Of a stretch of 64,000 nucleotides of DNA, positions 15,630-58,915 are shown piece after piece. Made by a program: the position numbers and the translations under genes. The notes below the pieces were generated by a model, which searched no databases, had not been told where the DNA came from, and worked only from the letters and a program-made list of their open reading frames with translations. This DNA is from an uncultured virus (IMG/VR IMGVR_UViG_3300009370_000022) (taxonomy: Duplodnaviria > Heunggongvirae > Uroviricota > Caudoviricetes), in IMG/VR virus record IMGVR_UViG_3300009370_000022. One strand, given 5' to 3'. The first letter of the stretch is position 1; each line of letters opens with the position of its first letter.

Positions 15630-17875
15630 TAGCTTAGTGCTTTTCCTATTGGTTCATACTTGTGCATCATGTCGTACATTCTTTTTGCACCTAAATCTCT
15701 GTCTCCACCACCGATACCTTTCACAGCATCAGAAGTGACAACGAATTCTCCTTGAGCTAATAATGCTCTGACATCATCATGCTTTTCTTTTTTACCGTGT
15801 GGTTGGTAACCACCTATATCTCTAAAATCTAATTGAGGTCCGTCCTTAGATGGAATAACGGGTTGTTCTGATCCCATAGCATATCTAGTTCTCATTAAAC
15901 CACCACCTGCTGCTTCAACTACTTCTTCTTCTTCTACCTCTTCTGATTCTTCTACAACTTCCGGTCTACCTGCTGCTTGGTCTTTACTTCTAATAGCGAT
16001 AGCCATCTCTACTAATTCGTCTTTAGTTCTACCTCTTAATTGTTCCATAGGTATTCCCATAGAAGCTAACATTCTAATTAGCTTTAATAATTCTCCATCG
16101 TCTTCCTTTTTAGCCAGCGTCGCTGCAGCTTGTGTGCCACTGATCCCTGGTCCTTGGGCCGGGATTCCTGGTCTTTGACCCATCATAGGATTTCCTCTTC
16201 CCATCATAGGATTGCCACGCATCTGACCTTGGGCCATTAAATTCTGTTGGTTAAAAGGGTTCATGCCCGGCGAGCCCATGGCTCCCAGACCTCTGTTCAT
16301 CATAGGATTCATAGGGTTATTCATACCACCCATTCCTCCTCCATACAAGCCAATTCTCCCGCCTCTGTTAAGTAAAGCTTTGTACTTAGTAGTGTCGTCA
16401 AACAATGGAGTCGTTGGACCTCCTGCCCAATCTTCCCATTCTTTAAATCCATAATAGTCTCCTGTTGTTTCACCAGTTCTTGTGCCACCCACACCACTTT
16501 GAGCTGCCAGCCATGCGTCATAGCTAGGGTATCCTAATCTTTGCCATTCTGGTTGAGCACCTCTACCTTCTCCTCCTTGAGTAGGAGTAGGACCTGGAAA
16601 TAATCTGTCCCAGTCTGCTTGTGTCATATTGTTTCTATCTAAAATATCTTGACCTTCAGTAACTCTTCCTAAAAGTTCTACTCCACTTCCTTTTTTAGCT
16701 GGATTAAGATTAGGATTATAGGTTGCTTGACCATAATCTTTGATACCTTGTATATCCGAGGCCATTGCAATTAATTGGTCTTCTGTTAAATTTTCAGCCC
16801 ATTCAGGAACTTGACCACCTAATCCTTGAATTAATGCCCCCCAAATATTTGATGCTGCAGGACTTAATAAATTCATCTTTCTCATAGCTAAAACTTTATT
16901 TCTATTAAGTCCGGATTGATAAGATTTATTTCTAAAATCATTTATCCTCATTCCTATAGTAGGTTTTTCTACAAGAGGTGGAGGTCTAAAAAATTGTCCG
17001 TAGTTTGTATCTTGTTGCTGTGTTTTTAGGTCAGATGCGATTTTTTGTTTTCTTAATGCTTCTTGAAATCCTACATCTACTTTTCCATCGCCAGCACCAC
17101 CACTCCACGCATCCTTGGCTGCCATGGCTACTGCTTCTCTATTTCTATCTTCGTTGGGATTGCCTCCTCCGTATTGCATCCCAATCCTTCCACCTTGAGC
17201 ATTTTGTTCTCTCATTGCATCAAGCATTTTATTAAATTCTTCTACTGATACAGGTTCTATACCCATTGATTTCATTTCTTGTATATAGTTATAATACATT
17301 TCCGCACGATCAGATATATCTCCTCCCATGTCATACCCAATTCTTCCGCCTTGAGCTAGACCTATAAGTCCGCCTTCAGCTTTAGCGAATAATTCTTTTT
17401 CAGCCATGGCTCTGGCTGTCTCTTCATCGTGTCCTTGCTCAATTAACCAATCAGTCCATTCATCTACAAACATTTTTCTTGAATTTAAATAACCTTCATG
17501 ACCTGAAGTATCTATTACTGTTTTACTTTCTTCTAATACATCATCTCCCAGAGCACCAGCTGCCATAGCAGTACCACCAGCGGTAATGTAAGGATGTTTT
17601 TTAGCAAAGCCCAGTGCTTTAGTTAAAATTCCAGTAGGATCAGCACCAGGATTAGCAACACCTGGTACACCTTCTGCATATAACCATGGAGCTTTAGCAG
17701 TTAACATTTTTTTCCACCCTGCACCGCCTGCGCCATAACCACCCATCATTGGAGCCCCATAATAAAGAGCAGCTAAACCTGCTATTTTACCTAGCGGACT
17801 TCTTAATATCTTTTTGAAAGGTTTTGTTATACCTTTAACTGCCTTACCTACTGCTTTGAATGGATTAAATCCCAT
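15629..17875 (-). CDS. Internal virion protein with repeated GG motifs and a C-terminal GEFV domain
   Basis: LAQGGRIG, NAQGGRIG, LNRGGRIG; C-terminal DDVRALLAQGEFVV. Confidence 0.65.
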   Translation of the reverse strand: MGFNPFKAVGKAVKGITKPFKKILRSPLGKIAGLAALYYGAPMMGGYGAGGAGWKKMLTAKAPWLYAEGVPGVANPGADPTGILTKALGFAKKHPYITAGGTAMAAGALGDDVLEESKTVIDTSGHEGYLNSRKMFVDEWTDWLIEQGHDEETARAMAEKELFAKAEGGLIGLAQGGRIGYDMGGDISDRAEMYYNYIQEMKSMGIEPVSVEEFNKMLDAMREQNAQGGRIGMQYGGGNPNEDRNREAVAMAAKDAWSGGAGDGKVDVGFQEALRKQKIASDLKTQQQDTNYGQFFRPPPLVEKPTIGMRINDFRNKSYQSGLNRNKVLAMRKMNLLSPAASNIWGALIQGLGGQVPEWAENLTEDQLIAMASDIQGIKDYGQATYNPNLNPAKKGSGVELLGRVTEGQDILDRNNMTQADWDRLFPGPTPTQGGEGRGAQPEWQRLGYPSYDAWLAAQSGVGGTRTGETTGDYYGFKEWEDWAGGPTTPLFDDTTKYKALLNRGGRIGLYGGGMGGMNNPMNPMMNRGLGAMGSPGMNPFNQQNLMAQGQMRGNPMMGRGNPMMGQRPGIPAQGPGISGTQAAATLAKKEDDGELLKLIRMLASMGIPMEQLRGRTKDELVEMAIAIRSKDQAAGRPEVVEESEEVEEEEVVEAAGGGLMRTRYAMGSEQPVIPSKDGPQLDFRDIGGYQPHGKKEKHDDVRALLAQGEFVVTSDAVKGIGGGDRDLGAKRMYDMMHKYEPIGKALS

Positions 17876-17941
17876 AATTTTTCCTTGTAATTTGTGATAG
17901 CAGGTTGAAGGGTAGTCCTGAAAACCCTAATCTATATGATA

Positions 17942-18802
17942 TTACTTAATTTTTCTGCCTTCGTCAATGAATCTTCCACGATAAGCAAAGTCCCCATGAT
18001 GAGTAATGTAGGCATCCACATTAGCATAGATCTTACCACCAAGAGCAGTCCATCTATTACAAAATGCGTAATCTTCCCCTATGAATTCTCCTGTTTCTTG
18101 GTTAAAATCAGTATCAAAAAAGTTCCACATCTCATCTTCTCCTGCCAGAATACCGTTAACTAAATGCTTTTGTTTAATAAGTAATTTAGGATAAGCTTTA
18201 GCCATTTTTTCAAAGACTTCTCTTTTAATTAACATACACCCAGCTGGTCCTTTTTTAATTTCTACTAAACCATCTACACTTTCAATATTATTTTTATCTG
18301 GAAATTCCATGCAATAATAGTAAGGACATTCTTCAATTGGTCTTCCACTTTTTTCTGCCATATCTCTGGCTTTATCCCAATTAACTGCTTTCATGGGATA
18401 AGGTGTAAGTACAATATCTTTATCTGCTTTTAACATCATAAGAATAGAGGTAGCATCAAATTCAATATCTGAATCAATGAATAAAAGATGTGACATTTTA
18501 GAATTTAAGAAAGATTGTACACACATATTTCTCCCTGTAATAATAATGGAAGATCTTACCATATGAAATTGAGGAATAATATTTTGTGACAAGCACAGAC
18601 TTTGAAGTTCTAATAAAGATTTCACACAACTTAATTTAATCTCTCCCATGTTAGGAGTAGCTACAAACAAAGTATCTTTAAGGTGAGAATGTAATGTAGT
18701 GTCTATTATTTGGCTACCATTGATGGTGTTCTGTTCATACAATTTAACCTCAGGATCAAATTTATCATCAGTTAAAAAGCTATCATTTGCTTCCATCTTC
18801 AT
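17942..18802 (-). CDS. GT-A fold glycosyltransferase-like protein
   Basis: FVATP, GRNMCV, HLLFIDSDI (DxD), GCMLIKREVFE, GEDYAFC. Confidence 0.85.
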   Translation of the reverse strand: MKMEANDSFLTDDKFDPEVKLYEQNTINGSQIIDTTLHSHLKDTLFVATPNMGEIKLSCVKSLLELQSLCLSQNIIPQFHMVRSSIIITGRNMCVQSFLNSKMSHLLFIDSDIEFDATSILMMLKADKDIVLTPYPMKAVNWDKARDMAEKSGRPIEECPYYYCMEFPDKNNIESVDGLVEIKKGPAGCMLIKREVFEKMAKAYPKLLIKQKHLVNGILAGEDEMWNFFDTDFNQETGEFIGEDYAFCNRWTALGGKIYANVDAYITHHGDFAYRGRFIDEGRKIK

Positions 18803-50507: not shown

Positions 50508-51646
50508 TATATGTCCCTGCTTCTTCCTGAAAGTGGTATGTCCATTAATCCACCCCGAGCTAAACCATAAGCTTTTACTTTTCCACCTGGTCCAACTCTG
50601 CTTGAAGTTCTTGCTACGTTTTGAGCTCTAGTTGTACGTGCTGGAGTGCTTTTTAAAAATGCACCTCCTGTTGGTTCTTCTTGTCTACCTGGACCAGCTT
50701 GAGTTACGTCTCCAGTTGCGCCACCTTTATAATCAAGGCCATGATACCAGTGAGTAGGTGCTCGTCCGCTTTCATAACTCTTTTTGTATTTTTTGTGTTT
50801 TGCAACTTGATCAAAATATCTGTTTACTAGTGGTTTAATTCGTTTCAAATAATTGTTCACGGCTCCCACAGAGCCTAGTTGATCAATCATATATTTTTTA
50901 CTTAAATCACTTCTGCTTGTACCAAACCAAATATCTGTAAAATTATCTGATTCTTCTTCATCAGGATTCATCATCTTTGCTCTTTCTATATCCCTAGCTC
51001 TGGTAAAAAATTCACCCATCTCATGGTCAGAAAGTTTATGCGGCCCATATCCAATTTCTATACCTTTTGCTTCATCAGCAATAGGTTTAAAACCACGTTG
51101 TGTATCTAAACCATGTGCAACCTCATGACTTAGTATATCTGTTATATATTTATTTATATCTGCCTGATTTGCTGTTTGGTTTCTACTTGAAGTAGTCATA
51201 TTACCCTCAACAATGTCTGTCATTCCAAAATCTTTTATTGGTCCAGGATACCAATCAGGAGCAGGAGACAGTTCATTTCTAGGTGAAGTAGGAAAAGTTC
51301 CATAAGCTTCCATCAGCTTGGGTTTTATTGCTTGGCGCGCACCATAACTCGATCCGTGAGGAAACGAACCAGCTGGCAGAAGTTCAACATTTAAAGGTTG
51401 ATAAGGGTCTTCTACATCCCATTGTGAATAACTTGTTTTATCGGTATCAAAATCATAATCTTGGGAATAATAATTTTCACCTTCAGGAACAAGAGTTGGG
51501 TCTATCTTATACAAAGGACCTTTTGGTGGACTAAAATAATCTTCAAATTGTAACTCTTGATATGGATAAAGCCCAGCGTCAAATTCTGGATATCCTTGTG
51601 ATTGCAACTCCATAAGTTTATATTGTAAATCTGTAATTCCAGACAT
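50507..51646 (-). CDS. Protein with a HExxH zincin-like motif
   Basis: ILSHEVAHG...EFFTR; C-terminal LARGGL. Confidence 0.65.
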   Translation of the reverse strand: MSGITDLQYKLMELQSQGYPEFDAGLYPYQELQFEDYFSPPKGPLYKIDPTLVPEGENYYSQDYDFDTDKTSYSQWDVEDPYQPLNVELLPAGSFPHGSSYGARQAIKPKLMEAYGTFPTSPRNELSPAPDWYPGPIKDFGMTDIVEGNMTTSSRNQTANQADINKYITDILSHEVAHGLDTQRGFKPIADEAKGIEIGYGPHKLSDHEMGEFFTRARDIERAKMMNPDEEESDNFTDIWFGTSRSDLSKKYMIDQLGSVGAVNNYLKRIKPLVNRYFDQVAKHKKYKKSYESGRAPTHWYHGLDYKGGATGDVTQAGPGRQEEPTGGAFLKSTPARTTRAQNVARTSSRVGPGGKVKAYGLARGGLMDIPLSGRSRDI

Positions 51647-53115
51647 TAATAATACTCCCTTTTCATAGGTTCTCGTTTTTCATCTTTGTAATCTTCCGGG
51701 TGAGGAAGAAAACCGCCTTGTCTGAAGCGCATGATAGCCTGTGTTGTTGAGTCCACAAGGTCATCGTGGTCGCCATAAGGGAATGCTGCGCATTCTTCTA
51801 TGACTTCCTCCGCAAACTTCTGTTCTGGCGCCCATATAATACCACTTTCGAACAAAGGTGCAACTGAATTGACCCTTACGTGCTTGTCATTGCCCTTCGA
51901 TGGTGTGAAGTTCACAACCGGAATATCCATCTGACGAAGTTCGTGAGTCAGCGGAAGGCCCGATGCTTTCGATTCGATAATTACAGTTTCAGGTTGCCAA
52001 TATTTGTACTGTTCCAAGGCCCGTCGTCGAAGTTCCGGGAATTCATAACGACCTTTTAGTGAATCGAGTAAAATTAAGTTCAAAGGAGAGTCTTCATTTG
52101 GGTAAAAAACGCCCCAAGTCGTAATTGCACTAAAATCGGCCGTTTCTTTTTTCATAAATGCAGTATCGTAAGACTGAATTACGTGTTGAAGCGTTGGAAT
52201 CCAATCTTTATCCCATTTTCGCCACCATTCTCGCTTAATTATTGCTCCTTCTTCAGAAGTGGGTCCTTGCATCCACTGTGCATTCCATTTTGCAACCGGA
52301 AGAGTTGCTTTAACTTTCTCTAATTCGTCCTGATTCCAGTATTCTGGCCACATTGGTTTTCCATCTTCCATGATTGCCGGAAATTCGATTACTTCCCATT
52401 GGTCTGCTTTAACTTCTTTTTGATTTTTTAGTAACATTCCCGTTAAATCTTTAGTACTCCAACGAGTCATTACACAAACGATAGATCCCCCTGGTTGAAG
52501 ACGTTGACGTGGTCCAGAAGTATACCATTCATACGCACTTTCTAACTTAGTTTCGCTTAATGCATCTTGTTCAGAATGAGGATCGTCAATAATTAATAAA
52601 TCAGCACCCCGGCCGGTGATGGCACCGCCGACTCCAGCAGCGAAATACTCGCCGCCTTGTGCTGTCTCCCACCTCCCAGCGGCTTTGGAGTCCTCTTGTA
52701 ATTTTGTAATAAAAATTTTTTTATATTCTTCGGAATCAATTAAGTGTTTTGCCTTACGACCAAAACGAATTGCTAATTCTCCAGTGTGAGTTGCTTGAAT
52801 GATTTTTAATTTTGGATTACGGCCCACCATCCACGATGGCAGAAGATAAGACGCAAATTCTGATTTTGTATGTCTTGGTGGCATATTGATGATTAATCGC
52901 TTAATTTCACCAGTAGCCAACTTATTAAATTTTTCTGCGACGTGTCTGTGATGAGCACCCTCAATAAAATCAGGCCATACACACTTTACAAAGCTCAAAA
53001 AATCACTTTTAGCTTTATTCTGTATCTTTTTTTCAGCATGCATTACCTGATAACGCTTATAGGTCTTCCGGACATCCGCAGGTAATTTTGAAATATCTAC
53101 ATTATCTAGGTTCAT
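51646..53115 (-). CDS. terL: Terminase large subunit
   Basis: NMPPRHTKS, LIIDDP, SYDTA..ADFSA, HDDLVD. Confidence 0.95.
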   Translation of the reverse strand: MNLDNVDISKLPADVRKTYKRYQVMHAEKKIQNKAKSDFLSFVKCVWPDFIEGAHHRHVAEKFNKLATGEIKRLIINMPPRHTKSEFASYLLPSWMVGRNPKLKIIQATHTGELAIRFGRKAKHLIDSEEYKKIFITKLQEDSKAAGRWETAQGGEYFAAGVGGAITGRGADLLIIDDPHSEQDALSETKLESAYEWYTSGPRQRLQPGGSIVCVMTRWSTKDLTGMLLKNQKEVKADQWEVIEFPAIMEDGKPMWPEYWNQDELEKVKATLPVAKWNAQWMQGPTSEEGAIIKREWWRKWDKDWIPTLQHVIQSYDTAFMKKETADFSAITTWGVFYPNEDSPLNLILLDSLKGRYEFPELRRRALEQYKYWQPETVIIESKASGLPLTHELRQMDIPVVNFTPSKGNDKHVRVNSVAPLFESGIIWAPEQKFAEEVIEECAAFPYGDHDDLVDSTTQAIMRFRQGGFLPHPEDYKDEKREPMKREYY

Positions 53116-53159: not shown

Positions 53160-53253
53160 GCCATAAAGAGAAAAGCAGTGGGACCCCTTTTTAAAAAAAG
53201 GTTTTTAAGGTTAGGGTGGGGGGATTTTTGGAGCTGGGCCGGGGCCCGATATG

Positions 53254-54355: not shown

Positions 54356-55357
54356 TTAATTTACACTTGCATTTTGTTGTTGCTCGTACAACATTCTAGC
54401 CTTTATTTTATCCTCTCTTGTTTGGTTTTTGTTTTTCATACCTTTAATCCTATCAGCTAGGTTTTTAGGATTATATATAACAAGTCCGGTTGAGTTTGTT
54501 CTGATTATTTCTGCGTCAGAAATATTCAAACCAAGTTCTGTCGCTAACTCAATAGCCTCGTCAAGATATTTATAACCTTTTAGACCAATTTTAATTTCTT
54601 TCATCTGATCTAAAATACTTTTTATCCAATTTCTATGTGCCATAACAAATTGACCTTTGGCTTGTTTCCATTGTTTAAGCATTAAAAATTGTTGTTCATT
54701 ACAAGCAATAGAACGATCTCTACAATATTCTCTACCAATTAAATCTAATTGGTATTTTTCATTCCATTGTTTGCCATATCCACTATCATCACTTCCAAGA
54801 TATTTAGTATTGTTGTCAGTATATTTTGTTAAATGTGGGTTGTTGTCTTTGCCCTCTTGTTCGATCAAAATATCTGGATTGCAATTATCTTGTGCCTTTA
54901 GTTCATCACGATACAAAGCATAGCCATACGCACTATCATCAGAATAACTATCGCTATTATTTTCCATACTACCATTTAGTCTAAAATCAAAATGTTCTTC
55001 AATAGTATCTTGTTTCATGATTGGATTGTTGTCATAATCTCTATCTTCTTTCATACCTAAATAATGAAAATGAAAGCAACTATCTTTCGCAATAGTCGAA
55101 ACATTCTCAAATTTATTCTGTAAGTGATATGCCATTTTGACATCTTCTGGAGTATAATGTTTTCTGACAATAGTTTCTGCTAAATTCCACGCATTGTCAT
55201 TTAACTCAATTTGATCTGCTTTGAGTTCATCATACTTTGTTTTTTCTTGTGTTGGTTCTTGTTCCAAGTGTACTCGCATACGATTTGCGATTTTATTTCT
55301 ATACTCTTGGTTTAGTCTTATTCTACTCATTTTTGCCTTTCTGTTTTTATTTTGCAT
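54356..55357 (-). CDS. Hypothetical early protein (333 aa)
   Basis: Long ORF; no motif recognised. Confidence 0.8.
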   Translation of the reverse strand: MQNKNRKAKMSRIRLNQEYRNKIANRMRVHLEQEPTQEKTKYDELKADQIELNDNAWNLAETIVRKHYTPEDVKMAYHLQNKFENVSTIAKDSCFHFHYLGMKEDRDYDNNPIMKQDTIEEHFDFRLNGSMENNSDSYSDDSAYGYALYRDELKAQDNCNPDILIEQEGKDNNPHLTKYTDNNTKYLGSDDSGYGKQWNEKYQLDLIGREYCRDRSIACNEQQFLMLKQWKQAKGQFVMAHRNWIKSILDQMKEIKIGLKGYKYLDEAIELATELGLNISDAEIIRTNSTGLVIYNPKNLADRIKGMKNKNQTREDKIKARMLYEQQQNASVN

Positions 55358-55363
55358 GATTTG

Positions 55364-55402
55364 AAATTAACACTTGACATTTATTCTGTCAAGCATTAAA
55401 TA
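55364..55402. promoter_or_regulatory. Overlapping divergent promoters
   Basis: TTGACA...TGTCAA inverted pair; minus TTGACA-17-TAATTT, plus TTGACA-17-TAAATA. Confidence 0.6.
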
Positions 55403-55409
55403 GGATTAA

Positions 55410-55897
55410 TTAATTATGTATGAGAACTGATGGAATTCTAGGTTGTACGCCTCTGATTAATTGGGACAACTTCTGGTTGTAGTACGTCACACCGACATTA
55501 GCCGTCCGTCTTCGTGCTATGAACTAGAACTGATCCCTGATCGCTGTTAGCTCAATGGCAGAATTTCGAATTCACCAATAGTCCAGCGATCTGGGATCAG
55601 ATGTTGTAACTGCTGGATTTAAACGGCTATAGTACAGGTTGCAAGCGAAGTCACGCTGGCTATCAGTGTAGCTACGGAGGTAGCCTGCCTGCACAGGACA
55701 ACAACTGATCCCTGGTCCATATTATTAGTTGCCAGTAGCAGATCTCAATGTGGTTGCGAAGAGTATGGGCCTGGGATCAGGAATAATGAGAAAAAATCAG
55801 CTGTCTGCGGCCGGCCTAAACATTCAGCCAGGTTTTGCTCATACGTGTTCTATAGTAAGCACGTATGGGTTAGTATGAAATTTTTAACCCGGCCGGA
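55410..55897 (+). ncRNA. Candidate structured non-coding RNA (multi-hairpin)
   Basis: No ORF of 60 aa or more; GC-richer than the flanks; at least five stems, with G-U pairs on the plus strand. Confidence 0.6.
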
Positions 55898-55911
55898 ATT
55901 TTAAAAAGCTT

Positions 55912-55959
55912 CAAGCAACGAGCAACAAGCTTGACAGGACCTGTAGGATAGTATAGGAT
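55912..55959 (+). promoter_or_regulatory. Promoter with upstream heptamer repeats
   Basis: CAAGCAA CGAGCAA CAAGC then TTGACA-17-TAGGAT. Confidence 0.8.
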
Positions 55960-56033
55960 GTAATTGATGACCTCGTTTGGTGCTTTTCCGGTCGATAAAT
56001 TTGCCAAAGCACCACAACAAATAAAGGAGAAAT

Positions 56034-56216: not shown

Positions 56217-56226
56217 ATTTAAGCCT

Positions 56227-56274
56227 GAAGCAACAAGCAGCAAGCTTGACAGCTGGTCCCGGAGATGATAGGAT
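56227..56274 (+). promoter_or_regulatory. Promoter with upstream heptamer repeats
   Basis: GAAGCAA CAAGCAG CAAGC then TTGACA-17-TAGGAT. Confidence 0.8.
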
Positions 56275-56292
56275 GGATTTAGAAAGGAATAT

Positions 56293-56469: not shown

Positions 56470-56617
56470 TTTATTAAATTATTTCATCCATGATAAGCAG
56501 GACCTGAGTCCTGCTTACGTGCGCAGCTGTGAAAAGTTTTTTAAAAGCCTGAAGTCTCAAGCAGCAAGCCGCAAGCCGCAAGCGCCACGAAAAAGACACA
56601 ATCATGAATTAAAATAA
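56441..56617 (+). CDS. Small protein (58 aa), not in the ORF track
   Basis: MTRIRSNHNNLLNYF...; AGGAG RBS; C-terminus encoded by the heptamer repeat. Confidence 0.6.
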   Translation: MTRIRSNHNNLLNYFIHDKQDLSPAYVRSCEKFFKSLKSQAASRKPQAPRKRHNHELK

Positions 56618-57227: not shown

Positions 57228-57407
57228 ATGACACATGTATTCAAACACCCGAAGTACTGGGCAGAGTTAAGAAAAACATACAAGCAAGCACGGACCAACG
57301 AGCAACGAGCGAGCACCGATCAACAAGCGAGCAAAGTCTCGAGCACCGTGGACCACGAAGCACGAGCAACGGACGAGCAAGCAAAGCCTTCCCTTAAAAG
57401 ATCCTGA
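57228..57407 (+). CDS. Small protein (59 aa) running into a repeat tract
   Basis: MTHVFKHPKYWAELRK...; overlaps the VRR-NUC gene convergently. Confidence 0.45.
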   Translation: MTHVFKHPKYWAELRKTYKQARTNEQRASTDQQASKVSSTVDHEARATDEQAKPSLKRS

Positions 57408-58309: not shown

Positions 58310-58915
58310 ATGGGCGTACCAAAAAGACTCACAGATCAGCAAAAAAGATTCTCAGAATTATATGTATATAACGAAGGAAGAATGACTCCTTATGAATGTG
58401 CTAAAGAGGCCGGTTATGCCGAAGACTCAGCTCGAGTTAGAGCTAGTGAATTAAGAAATCCCAAAAGATTTCCATTAGTAGTAAAATATATTGGAGAGTT
58501 AAGAGAGGAAGTACAAAATAAATATGAAGTCACATTCGAAAAACATATTAAAGAACTTGCAAGACTTAGAGAAGAAGCTCTCAAGAAAGGTAGCTTCTCA
58601 TCAGCTGTTAACGCAGAAGTCGCTAGAGGAAAAGCTGGAGGCTTATACATTGAACAAAAAATTATTAAAACTGGTAAACTGGAAGATATGACTGAGCAAG
58701 AATTAGAACAGAGAATGAAAGAAATTGTAGATCAGTATAGTCCAATACTAGACGCGAAACCTCTTGAACAACTTAAGAAAGAAGTTAAAGCAGGTCCTGC
58801 ACCACTCCTGAAAAAATTGCCAGATACAACATATGAAGATACCACAGCAGTAGAGAAGAGCACCAACAATCATCAAGGGGATGAGGACAAAAACGTAAAA
58901 AATATTACCCATTAG
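58310..58915 (+). CDS. terS: Terminase small subunit
   Basis: LTDQQKRF..LY, CAKEAGY..SARVRASEL HTH, AVNAEVARGK..GLY. Confidence 0.8.
   Translation: MGVPKRLTDQQKRFSELYVYNEGRMTPYECAKEAGYAEDSARVRASELRNPKRFPLVVKYIGELREEVQNKYEVTFEKHIKELARLREEALKKGSFSSAVNAEVARGKAGGLYIEQKIIKTGKLEDMTEQELEQRMKEIVDQYSPILDAKPLEQLKKEVKAGPAPLLKKLPDTTYEDTTAVEKSTNNHQGDEDKNVKNITH

Follow-up and report, generated by a model that had tools for sequence, protein, structure and literature searches.

A modular array of predicted RNA hairpins with self-complementary loops in the early region of an HTVC023P/027P-type pelagiphage-like genome

ROOL, GOLLD and OLE are RNAs of several hundred nucleotides built from many stems. According to the relevant sections of PMC12286853 and PMC12990946, ROOL and GOLLD are phage- or prophage-associated, and OLE L9.3 and GOLLD L21a form symmetric kissing loops, in which adjacent bases covary between palindromes; in OLE and GOLLD these contacts are intermolecular and confirmed by cryo-EM (same part of PMC12286853). 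The locus described here, known from sequence alone, resembles these RNAs in size and multi-stem build, and its loops share the covarying self-complementarity of symmetric kissing. It differs in lacking a single conserved overall fold, its modules being exchanged, nested and lost, and in carrying a repeated constant stem. Furthermore, no tRNA or tmRNA lies in the window, i.e., the whole stretch of 64,000 nucleotides analyzed here, and Rfam covariance models give no match there at the gathering score and chance-level matches only in E-value mode, in agreement with an earlier note on this DNA that recognized no known family. In the way its loops work, the array resembles ROOL, GOLLD and OLE, and it is not a member of these families.

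Engineered single-stranded RNA nanostars carry consecutive stem arms with palindromic hexamers at their tips, three arms being enough for condensates, and all loops of one synthetic star are identical (nanostar sections of PMC11289419). The array likewise places stems in series as arms of a single strand, with palindromic hexamers at the tips; unlike in nanostars, each arm has its own hexamer, many of them weak, and the arms carry conserved internal loops. Besides GCGCGC, GUGCAC is the other hexamer of the HIV-1 dimer initiation site (DIS). GCGCGC is given as a retroviral DIS hexamer in the corresponding section of PMC11289419. Both occur among the ten loop hexamers of one arm of the array (T1, below), in contrast to HIV-1 in a DNA phage, with many loops per RNA and no sign of genome-RNA packaging. 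A third comparison concerns the PeSL cassettes of T4-type phages, which share with the array early host-type promoters and short repeats driving modular shuffling in a variable region (PMC2839356, passages on PeSLs). The dispersed terminator hairpins of PeSLs shuffle protein genes, whereas the array shuffles RNA modules at one locus, and no canonical or terminator-like site was called in 55410-55930.

By gene content, the window represents an almost complete pelagiphage-like genome of the HTVC023P/027P type. Pfam/PHROG detected a family A polymerase, terminase subunits, and capsid and portal families, and the gene order around the array locus matches HTVC027P, from which Pelagibacter HTCC1062 is inferred as host. 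The pertinent text of PMC9599517 counts HTVC023P-type phages with the most abundant pelagiphages, and that of PMC12753301 assigns no known function to any of their early genes. The structured region occupies the gap between a minus-strand gene and the next early promoter at 55931, and comprises the following features:

54356-55357, minus strand: divergent early gene of 333 aa, homologue of HTVC027P gp35 (43% identity)
55392-55387, minus strand: -35 of the divergent promoter for the 333-aa gene, back to back with the plus-strand promoter
55374-55402, plus strand: predicted host sigma70-type promoter, TTGACA (55374-55379), 17 nt, TAAATA (55397-55402)
55410-55469, plus strand: 5' leader, AU-rich and variable, with the conserved anchor GGGACAA (55463-55469) at its 3' end
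55470-55529, plus strand: module A, long hairpin with conserved internal loop UCACACC/CGUCUU and variable apical stem
55530-55600, plus strand: cassette B1, constant stem 55530-55539/55591-55600, 17 bp, U.U at pair 9
55565-55570, plus strand: B1 cargo tip UUCGAA (UUCGAA or CUCGAA in relatives)
55602-55703, plus strand: linker module C, multi-way junction with covariation in 23 homologues
55602-55607/55698-55703 (P1), 55612-55627 (P2) and 55635-55639/55687-55691 (P3), plus strand: helices of module C
55658-55685, plus strand: distal arm of module C with palindrome GUAGCUAC (55668-55675) at its tip
55705-55780, plus strand: cassette B2, second constant stem around the "box" cargo, tip AGAUCU (55740-55745)
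55723-55729/55758-55763, plus strand: box internal loop UAUUAGU/GAAGAG of cassette B2
55793-55836, plus strand: terminal arm T1, stem 55793-55803/55825-55836, 13-nt loop
55809-55816, plus strand: self-complementary octamer GGCCGGCC of the T1 loop
55837-55870, plus strand: terminal arm T2, 13-bp stem, 8-nt loop with CUAUAG (55850-55855)
55871-55897, plus strand: 3' tail, conserved UAGUAUGAAA, then non-conserved CCGGCCGG
55906-55959, plus strand: AAGC-rich repeat with the next early promoter (TTGACA at 55931, TAGGAT up to 55959); arrays usually end here on the downstream side

The earlier note had proposed a multi-domain structured non-coding RNA under RNA-level selection, possibly a decoy, a scaffold or a processed small-RNA array. 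Folding agrees with a structured RNA: the plus strand of 55410-55897 has a predicted folding energy of -176.6 kcal/mol (z -6.14, none of 100 shuffles as good) and the minus strand reaches z -3.94. Stems at 55471-55529, 55530-55600 and 55705-55780 lie where they had been placed, and two other domains stand in part. The outer stem of the branched domain 55602-55703 was correctly located, whereas its GCUAC-GGAG-GUAGC hairpin is broken in all three homologues found (L039, L046, L559); these retain instead a longer arm tipped by GUAGCUA, and their four ACGC/GUGU pairs are still possible, but invariant. Within 55808-55895 the 13-bp stem at 55837-55870 holds, whereas the CGGCCGG closure is paired in only 49% of cells in nine homologues, with 54 of 500 shuffles as good, its 5' half forming the self-complementary loop in another, covarying hairpin. 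Overlooked had been that the same constant arm sequence recurs in both central stems and that five arms end in palindromes. A remark that many irregular positions are G-U fits the eight long or homologue-supported stems (68 Watson-Crick, 10 G.U, no A.C and 3 other pairs); in whole-region minimum free energy (MFE) folds the asymmetry is small, with G.U at 17/152 pairs on the plus and 13/145 on the minus strand.

Homologous arrays extend this picture. In 121 of 127 arrays folding favors the plus (promoter) strand, and G.U exceeds A.C at the variable stem positions 14, 17 and 18 (57:2, 85:8 and 75:13; 348 records, including 39 offset duplicates later removed). Pairs changed on both sides amount to 5/18 in module A and 6/19 in module C (23 homologues each) and 7/13 in T2 (9 homologues), three pairs of module A showing changes in 10, 12 and 13 of the 23 aligned sequences. 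The folding bias and the G.U excess show selection on the single plus strand, and given a promoter, RNA is the simplest reading of it; together with stems that covary among homologues, this upholds the claim of RNA-level selection. What did not survive is one fixed multi-domain RNA, as modules differ among close relatives. The 5' leader also varies between relatives, its anchor and the start of module A being found in 88 of 130 arrays; module A has no conserved palindrome; the T2 loop reads CUUAAG in most relatives; and CCGGCCGG is able to pair with the T1 loop in the window genome only. A coding role of the 40- and 49-codon ORFs across the region was ruled out, because modules exchanged among relatives leave these ORFs unable to be conserved. 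A tRNA-like D-loop/T-loop resemblance of cargo B1 was likewise dismissed, its "D-loop" portion not being retained in relatives.

The promoter that had been said to precede the region is weak in the window (TTGACA-17-TAAATA, the -10 matching consensus at only three of six positions), and a consensus scan lists none at 55374. Conservation nevertheless supports it: in 130 homologous arrays picked by the -35 alone, the -10 at 17-nt spacing reads TATATT in 63, TATATA in 42 and TAAATA in 5. Transcription from the predicted promoter is, in our judgment, very probable. Contigs from four RNA runs cover modules of relatives in small shares; as they also span flanking genes, DNA carry-over is possible, and these contigs speak neither for nor against transcription.

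Both central hairpins carry the constant arms CUGAUCCCUG and CUGGGAUCAG, forming a nearly invariant stem of 17-21 bp in which pairs 1-10 hardly change and pair 9 is a fixed U.U. Scanning viral contigs for the constant arms matched at least 121 stretches, and with pair 9 left free to either letter the mismatch was kept, as U.U on the promoter strand, in 221 of 247 matches. Among 63 relatives chosen by the neighbor gene, with 900 nt upstream, 57 have the constant stem and 5 are without it; the one other relative has a variant in which a G-C pair is doubly changed to A-U. The anchor scan caught at least one unrelated record (G310), which was excluded from later genome tests, as was G316, which has no exact arm. 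Enclosed between the inverted arms are folded, covarying cargos of 19-118 nt, falling into 214 families among 309 hairpins, 151 of them seen once (Chao1 about 480 families at the clustering threshold used), and the linkers between constant stems are structured modules in their own right. The 130 distinct complete arrays span 233-1121 nt and differ in modules and order, with one constant stem in 72, two in 44 and three in 14.

Cassettes are rarely shared, even between close relatives. A cargo is common to 11 of 247 locus pairs at 85-90% neighbor-protein identity, to 2 of 45 at 90-95% and to none of 6 above 95%, i.e., sharing stays at or below 5% of pairs regardless of identity (102 loci). Identical cargos occur at different array positions, whole modules are nested within a constant stem in L058 and G309, and each genome has one array cluster (window and six long records). 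On this evidence, the locus is a combinatorial modular RNA array rather than one fixed RNA, and its cassettes are probably exchanged by recombination at the 13-18-nt constant arms. In L424, L441, L446, L450 and L513, T2 is swapped for another arm with a GUGCAC or GUGCAU loop, indicating that shuffling also takes place inside modules. A host-borne element was discarded: the exact stem pattern occurs in only 3 short contigs of 185,579 species genomes, and since one of the contigs, L205, bears the phage's own genes, host-genome matches look like mis-binned phage DNA.

A stem length of 17-21 bp in 264 of 309 hairpins, together with near-invariant pairs 1-10 and their U.U, is what a site for one protein would be expected to show. 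This would suit a processed small-RNA array, in which RNase III or another double-strand nuclease of the host would cut at the constant stems, freeing the cargos as separate 40-80-nt RNAs that dimerize and act alone. RNase III is known to process early transcripts of phage T7, although it requires little fixed sequence, which counts against it here. Modules A, C and T lie outside the constant stems, with the same loop signal attributed to them, and the 72 arrays with a single constant stem also speak against processing as the main function, which we regard as unlikely. Cleavage at the constant stem would be compatible with the self-pairing that we favor.

Evidence for self-pairing comes from the loops. 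With a search pattern that left the T1 loop hexamer free, 146 of 156 matches are perfect palindromes; among distinct loops these make up 34 of 38, of ten kinds, against 4.8 +/- 1.9 (maximum 13) in a column-shuffle null. The remaining four (GUCGGC three times, GGUGCC once) can pair with themselves on the plus strand through a single U.G, making all 38 self-complementary as RNA, and GUCGGC is intermediate between GCCGGC and GUCGAC, both observed in T1. In the box family a palindromic hexamer, mostly central, is present in 24 of 28 non-redundant members (null 8.6 +/- 2.5) and, in a separate scan with an overlapping set, in 10 of 13 (null 3.2); an alternative distal arm at the same position in modules C and E has one in 17 of 18, these tallies counting sequences and not independent events. 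Cargos overall contain 202 palindromic hexamers, compared with 118 in dinucleotide and 100 in structure-preserving shuffles, and 143 of 204 families have one, compared with 84 +/- 7 in the latter (214 families less 10 dropped for short outer stems).

Palindromes also replace one another between homologues. Out of 43 sites with at least two changes, 19 remain palindromic where 1.6 are expected, and 13 of these change the central pair, which is unable to form in cis. Because adjacent bases cannot pair within one chain, the loop palindromes point to RNA-RNA pairing between copies, by the same argument that PMC12286853 applies to OLE and GOLLD in its section on these loops. Like plus-strand folding and modularity, selection for loop self-complementarity emerges directly from the sequence comparison, and we are fairly confident that the loops pair between molecules. 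Template switching could create palindromes, but would not fix them at one loop position amid diverging flanks.

The five palindromic tips of the window are UUCGAA (55565), GUAGCUAC (55668), AGAUCU (55740), GGCCGGCC (55809) and CUAUAG (55850); comparison with relatives argues strongly for AGAUCU, GGCCGGCC and CUAUAG, moderately for GUAGCUAC and weakly for UUCGAA. Four of the five tip duplexes are weak (-3.8 to -5.1 kcal/mol) and many hexamers are AU-rich; across cargos the palindromes lean to stronger duplexes (-5.9 vs -5.0 kcal/mol; rho -0.26, p 0.035). Valency is uneven, with 6.1 palindromic hexamers per array vs 3.9 in shuffles and 99 of 130 arrays above their own null, while 11 of 130 arrays (47 of 130 in a core-only count) have at most one. 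When all cargos are counted, self-complementary hexamers that tolerate G.U show no enrichment (166 vs 159), and lost palindromes are G.U-compatible in 10/46 and A.C-compatible in 8/46 cases. MFE folding places the cargo palindrome in a hairpin loop in only 48 of 216 cases, and T1 itself is misfolded by it. Uneven valency, weak duplexes, the lack of G.U-tolerant enrichment and the few MFE loop placements make a universal condensate unlikely, and dimers or small multimers are the safer expectation. Palindrome cores are skewed (CUAG 35 vs 12 expected, UGCA 24, UCGA 20, ACGU and CAUG 4 each), and neither duplex energy nor genome avoidance explains the CUAG preference or the scarcity of ACGU and CAUG.

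Palindromes could also act in the DNA, as restriction-site decoys or operators or as single-stranded hairpins of REPIN or integron attC type. They resemble type II restriction sites, and CTAG is enriched in cargos (67 vs 33) and depleted in the rest of the window (136 vs 224). Without correction, the more common a hexamer is in arrays, the rarer it is in the genome as a whole (rho -0.33, p 0.007, 20 genomes); correction for composition removes the link (rho -0.02, p 0.88; second test -0.20, p 0.12), and within a genome the palindromes of its own array show neither avoidance nor preference (p 0.42). With three tests null after correction, the restriction-site decoy was abandoned. The U.G exceptions in T1, moreover, suit a single strand and not duplex DNA. 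REPIN/BIME and attC arrays have a cognate HUH transposase or tyrosine integrase nearby. Among the 63 window ORFs searched with Pfam, which take in only some of the small ORFs, no transposase (including HUH), integrase or reverse transcriptase family was found, and unlike such arrays the locus has no dispersed copies in the window and six long records, and its cargos are too short for genes. We consider a DNA-level element very improbable.

The alternation of a constant repeat with variable inserts next to a conserved, early, uncharacterized gene invites comparison with CRISPR-, TIGR- or bridge-RNA-like guide arrays, the constant stems being handles for an effector such as the 333-aa neighbor and the cargos guides. 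These arrays have uniform unstructured spacers between direct repeats, in contrast to the structured, covarying cargos of 19-118 nt found here. The best cargo matches in 723 kb of related phage DNA are no better than those of shuffled and reversed cargos, a result that led us to drop self-targeting guides, and the window array gives chance-level matches only in 301 Pseudomonadota genomes. The neighbor has no Cas, Nop or nuclease match, and Pfam finds no Cas, Nop-domain or IS110 effector family among the 63 ORFs. We regard a guide array as very improbable.

The 333-aa neighbor belongs to no Pfam or PHROG family, and its model (pLDDT 80) has no clear fold match, the best reaching Z 5.3 over 68 residues. 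It serves as a context marker for the array and is at most a candidate for a role with the RNA. The protein is very widespread, with at least 8000 homologues (all 8000 scored candidates), and conservation and a ribosome-binding site suggest Met10 as its start. Next to a distant homologue in HTVC033P (L203, 1-9187; 27.5%) there is no constant-stem array, which makes the gene older or wider than the array. In HTVC027P the array-flanking genes gp35 and gp34 are classed as early and strongly expressed, gp35 with means of 174,025 TPM at the third and 213,855 TPM at the fourth time point (PMC12753301, Table S3, whose counts cover annotated genes only).

As the array stands directly behind a promoter, with no canonical terminator called before the next genes, it might be a cis-acting structured leader, or a PeSL-like promoter/stem-loop spacer, that controls or stabilizes downstream early genes and whose self-pairing might be a means of sensing genome copy number. 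Each early promoter has similar repeats in front of it, and PeSLs shuffle modules in T4-type phages (PMC2839356, as above). The downstream genes, however, have their own promoter at 55931 and differ among relatives; a terminator needs neither hundreds of cargo types nor covarying loop palindromes; and the array occurs once per genome, whereas PeSLs are dispersed. A cis role consequently seems rather improbable to us. AAGC-rich short repeats lie at 55906-55965, 56221-56280, 56545-56583 and 57286-57379, extend up to the TTGACA of early promoters and also occur between small ORFs; they are likely handles for early-gene shuffling.

We propose that host RNA polymerase would make the phage non-coding RNA of ~480 nt early in infection and that it would fold locally into a row of independent arms. 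Self-complementary arm loops would pair with the same loop in another copy, yielding dimers or higher multimers, while the constant 17-21-bp stems would insulate the fold of each cargo and, as short DNA repeats, let cassettes be swapped, nested and lost through recombination. The multimer may then show a strain-specific set of RNA shapes to host proteins, probably of defense or RNA binding, during takeover. An early self-associating multi-arm RNA, reshuffled at constant stems and probably a multivalent decoy or scaffold, is the reading we hold, with a probability slightly better than even. Its self-association is well supported by covariation, and probable pairing between molecules is the conserved feature added here to the roles suggested in the earlier note. 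The decoy or scaffold role, taken for itself, we put somewhat below an even chance; it is deduced from timing, position in a variable early island and cassette diversity, and the searches made found no partner protein or target. More speculative, and doubtful at present, is the combined idea of an integron-like RNA gene, with a pool of several hundred aptamer cassettes assembled on constant stems, whose orthogonal loops would build a strain-specific RNA cage or condensate sequestering SAR11 defense or translation factors early, as a natural counterpart of engineered nanostars. The box internal loop (55723-55763) may resemble loop E of 5S rRNA, and the GUA/GAAA flanks of the module C/E distal arm in relatives may resemble the sarcin-ricin motif; such motifs could orient kissing loops or mimic host protein-binding sites.

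One module is already catalogued. The Rfam motif Flavobacterium-1 (RF02976) turns up as one of the locus modules in 4 of the 60 related loci scanned (4 of the 40 first scanned, none of 20 further loci with a T module). The matches reach 90-104 bits (cut-off 58.9) in these four loci, with none in the window, at L205 652-771, L274 778-899, L225 530-651 and L202 4514-4634, the last corresponding to about 17753-17873 on the minus strand of cultured HTVC027P; CUGAUCAG lies in the last hairpin in the three alignments shown. In HTVC027P (MN698241) the locus as a whole covers roughly 17,680-18,200, likewise on the minus strand. The motif, which reportedly traces to one earlier motif paper, is catalogued as a stand-alone sRNA and not as one cassette of an array. 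Since L205, a Flavobacterium single-cell contig, bears the same phage genes, Flavobacterium-1 is probably phage-borne and misnamed. The novelty assumed in the earlier note is thereby qualified: the window is free of Rfam matches, whereas a module of its relatives has a name.

Literature searches returned no description of the array locus, single modules of which may sit in supplements of PMC10690425 and PMC5737381. Seven supplementary files of PMC10690425 contain no match, and the main text of PMC5737381 does not name Flavobacterium; the available portions of PMC12379486 and PMC9599517 do not describe the locus. The locus is real, conserved in kind and apparently undescribed as a system. What appears new is its cassette architecture; self-pairing phage RNAs as such were already known. 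Hundreds of cassette types in one combinatorial RNA gene, with self-pairing loops validated by evolution, would bring a further layer to phage-host conflict in SAR11. Such a gene would also place an orphan Rfam motif in a setting and offer a natural collection of kissing loops and folded RNAs. The reading is directly testable, as the locus is present in a cultured phage for which stranded infection RNA-seq exists.

Some minor observations concern the surroundings of the array. Four loci without the constant stem (L057, L065, L072 and L076) have two to three copies of a T-run followed by GGGTGGGCCCGCCC upstream of the neighbor gene. The large (51646-53115, minus) and small (58310-58915, plus) terminase genes lie on opposite strands with the 5-kb early island between them, an arrangement shared with HTVC027P. 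An A/T-run and a G-rich stretch at 53186-53250, upstream of the large terminase gene, possibly mark a genome end or packaging site.
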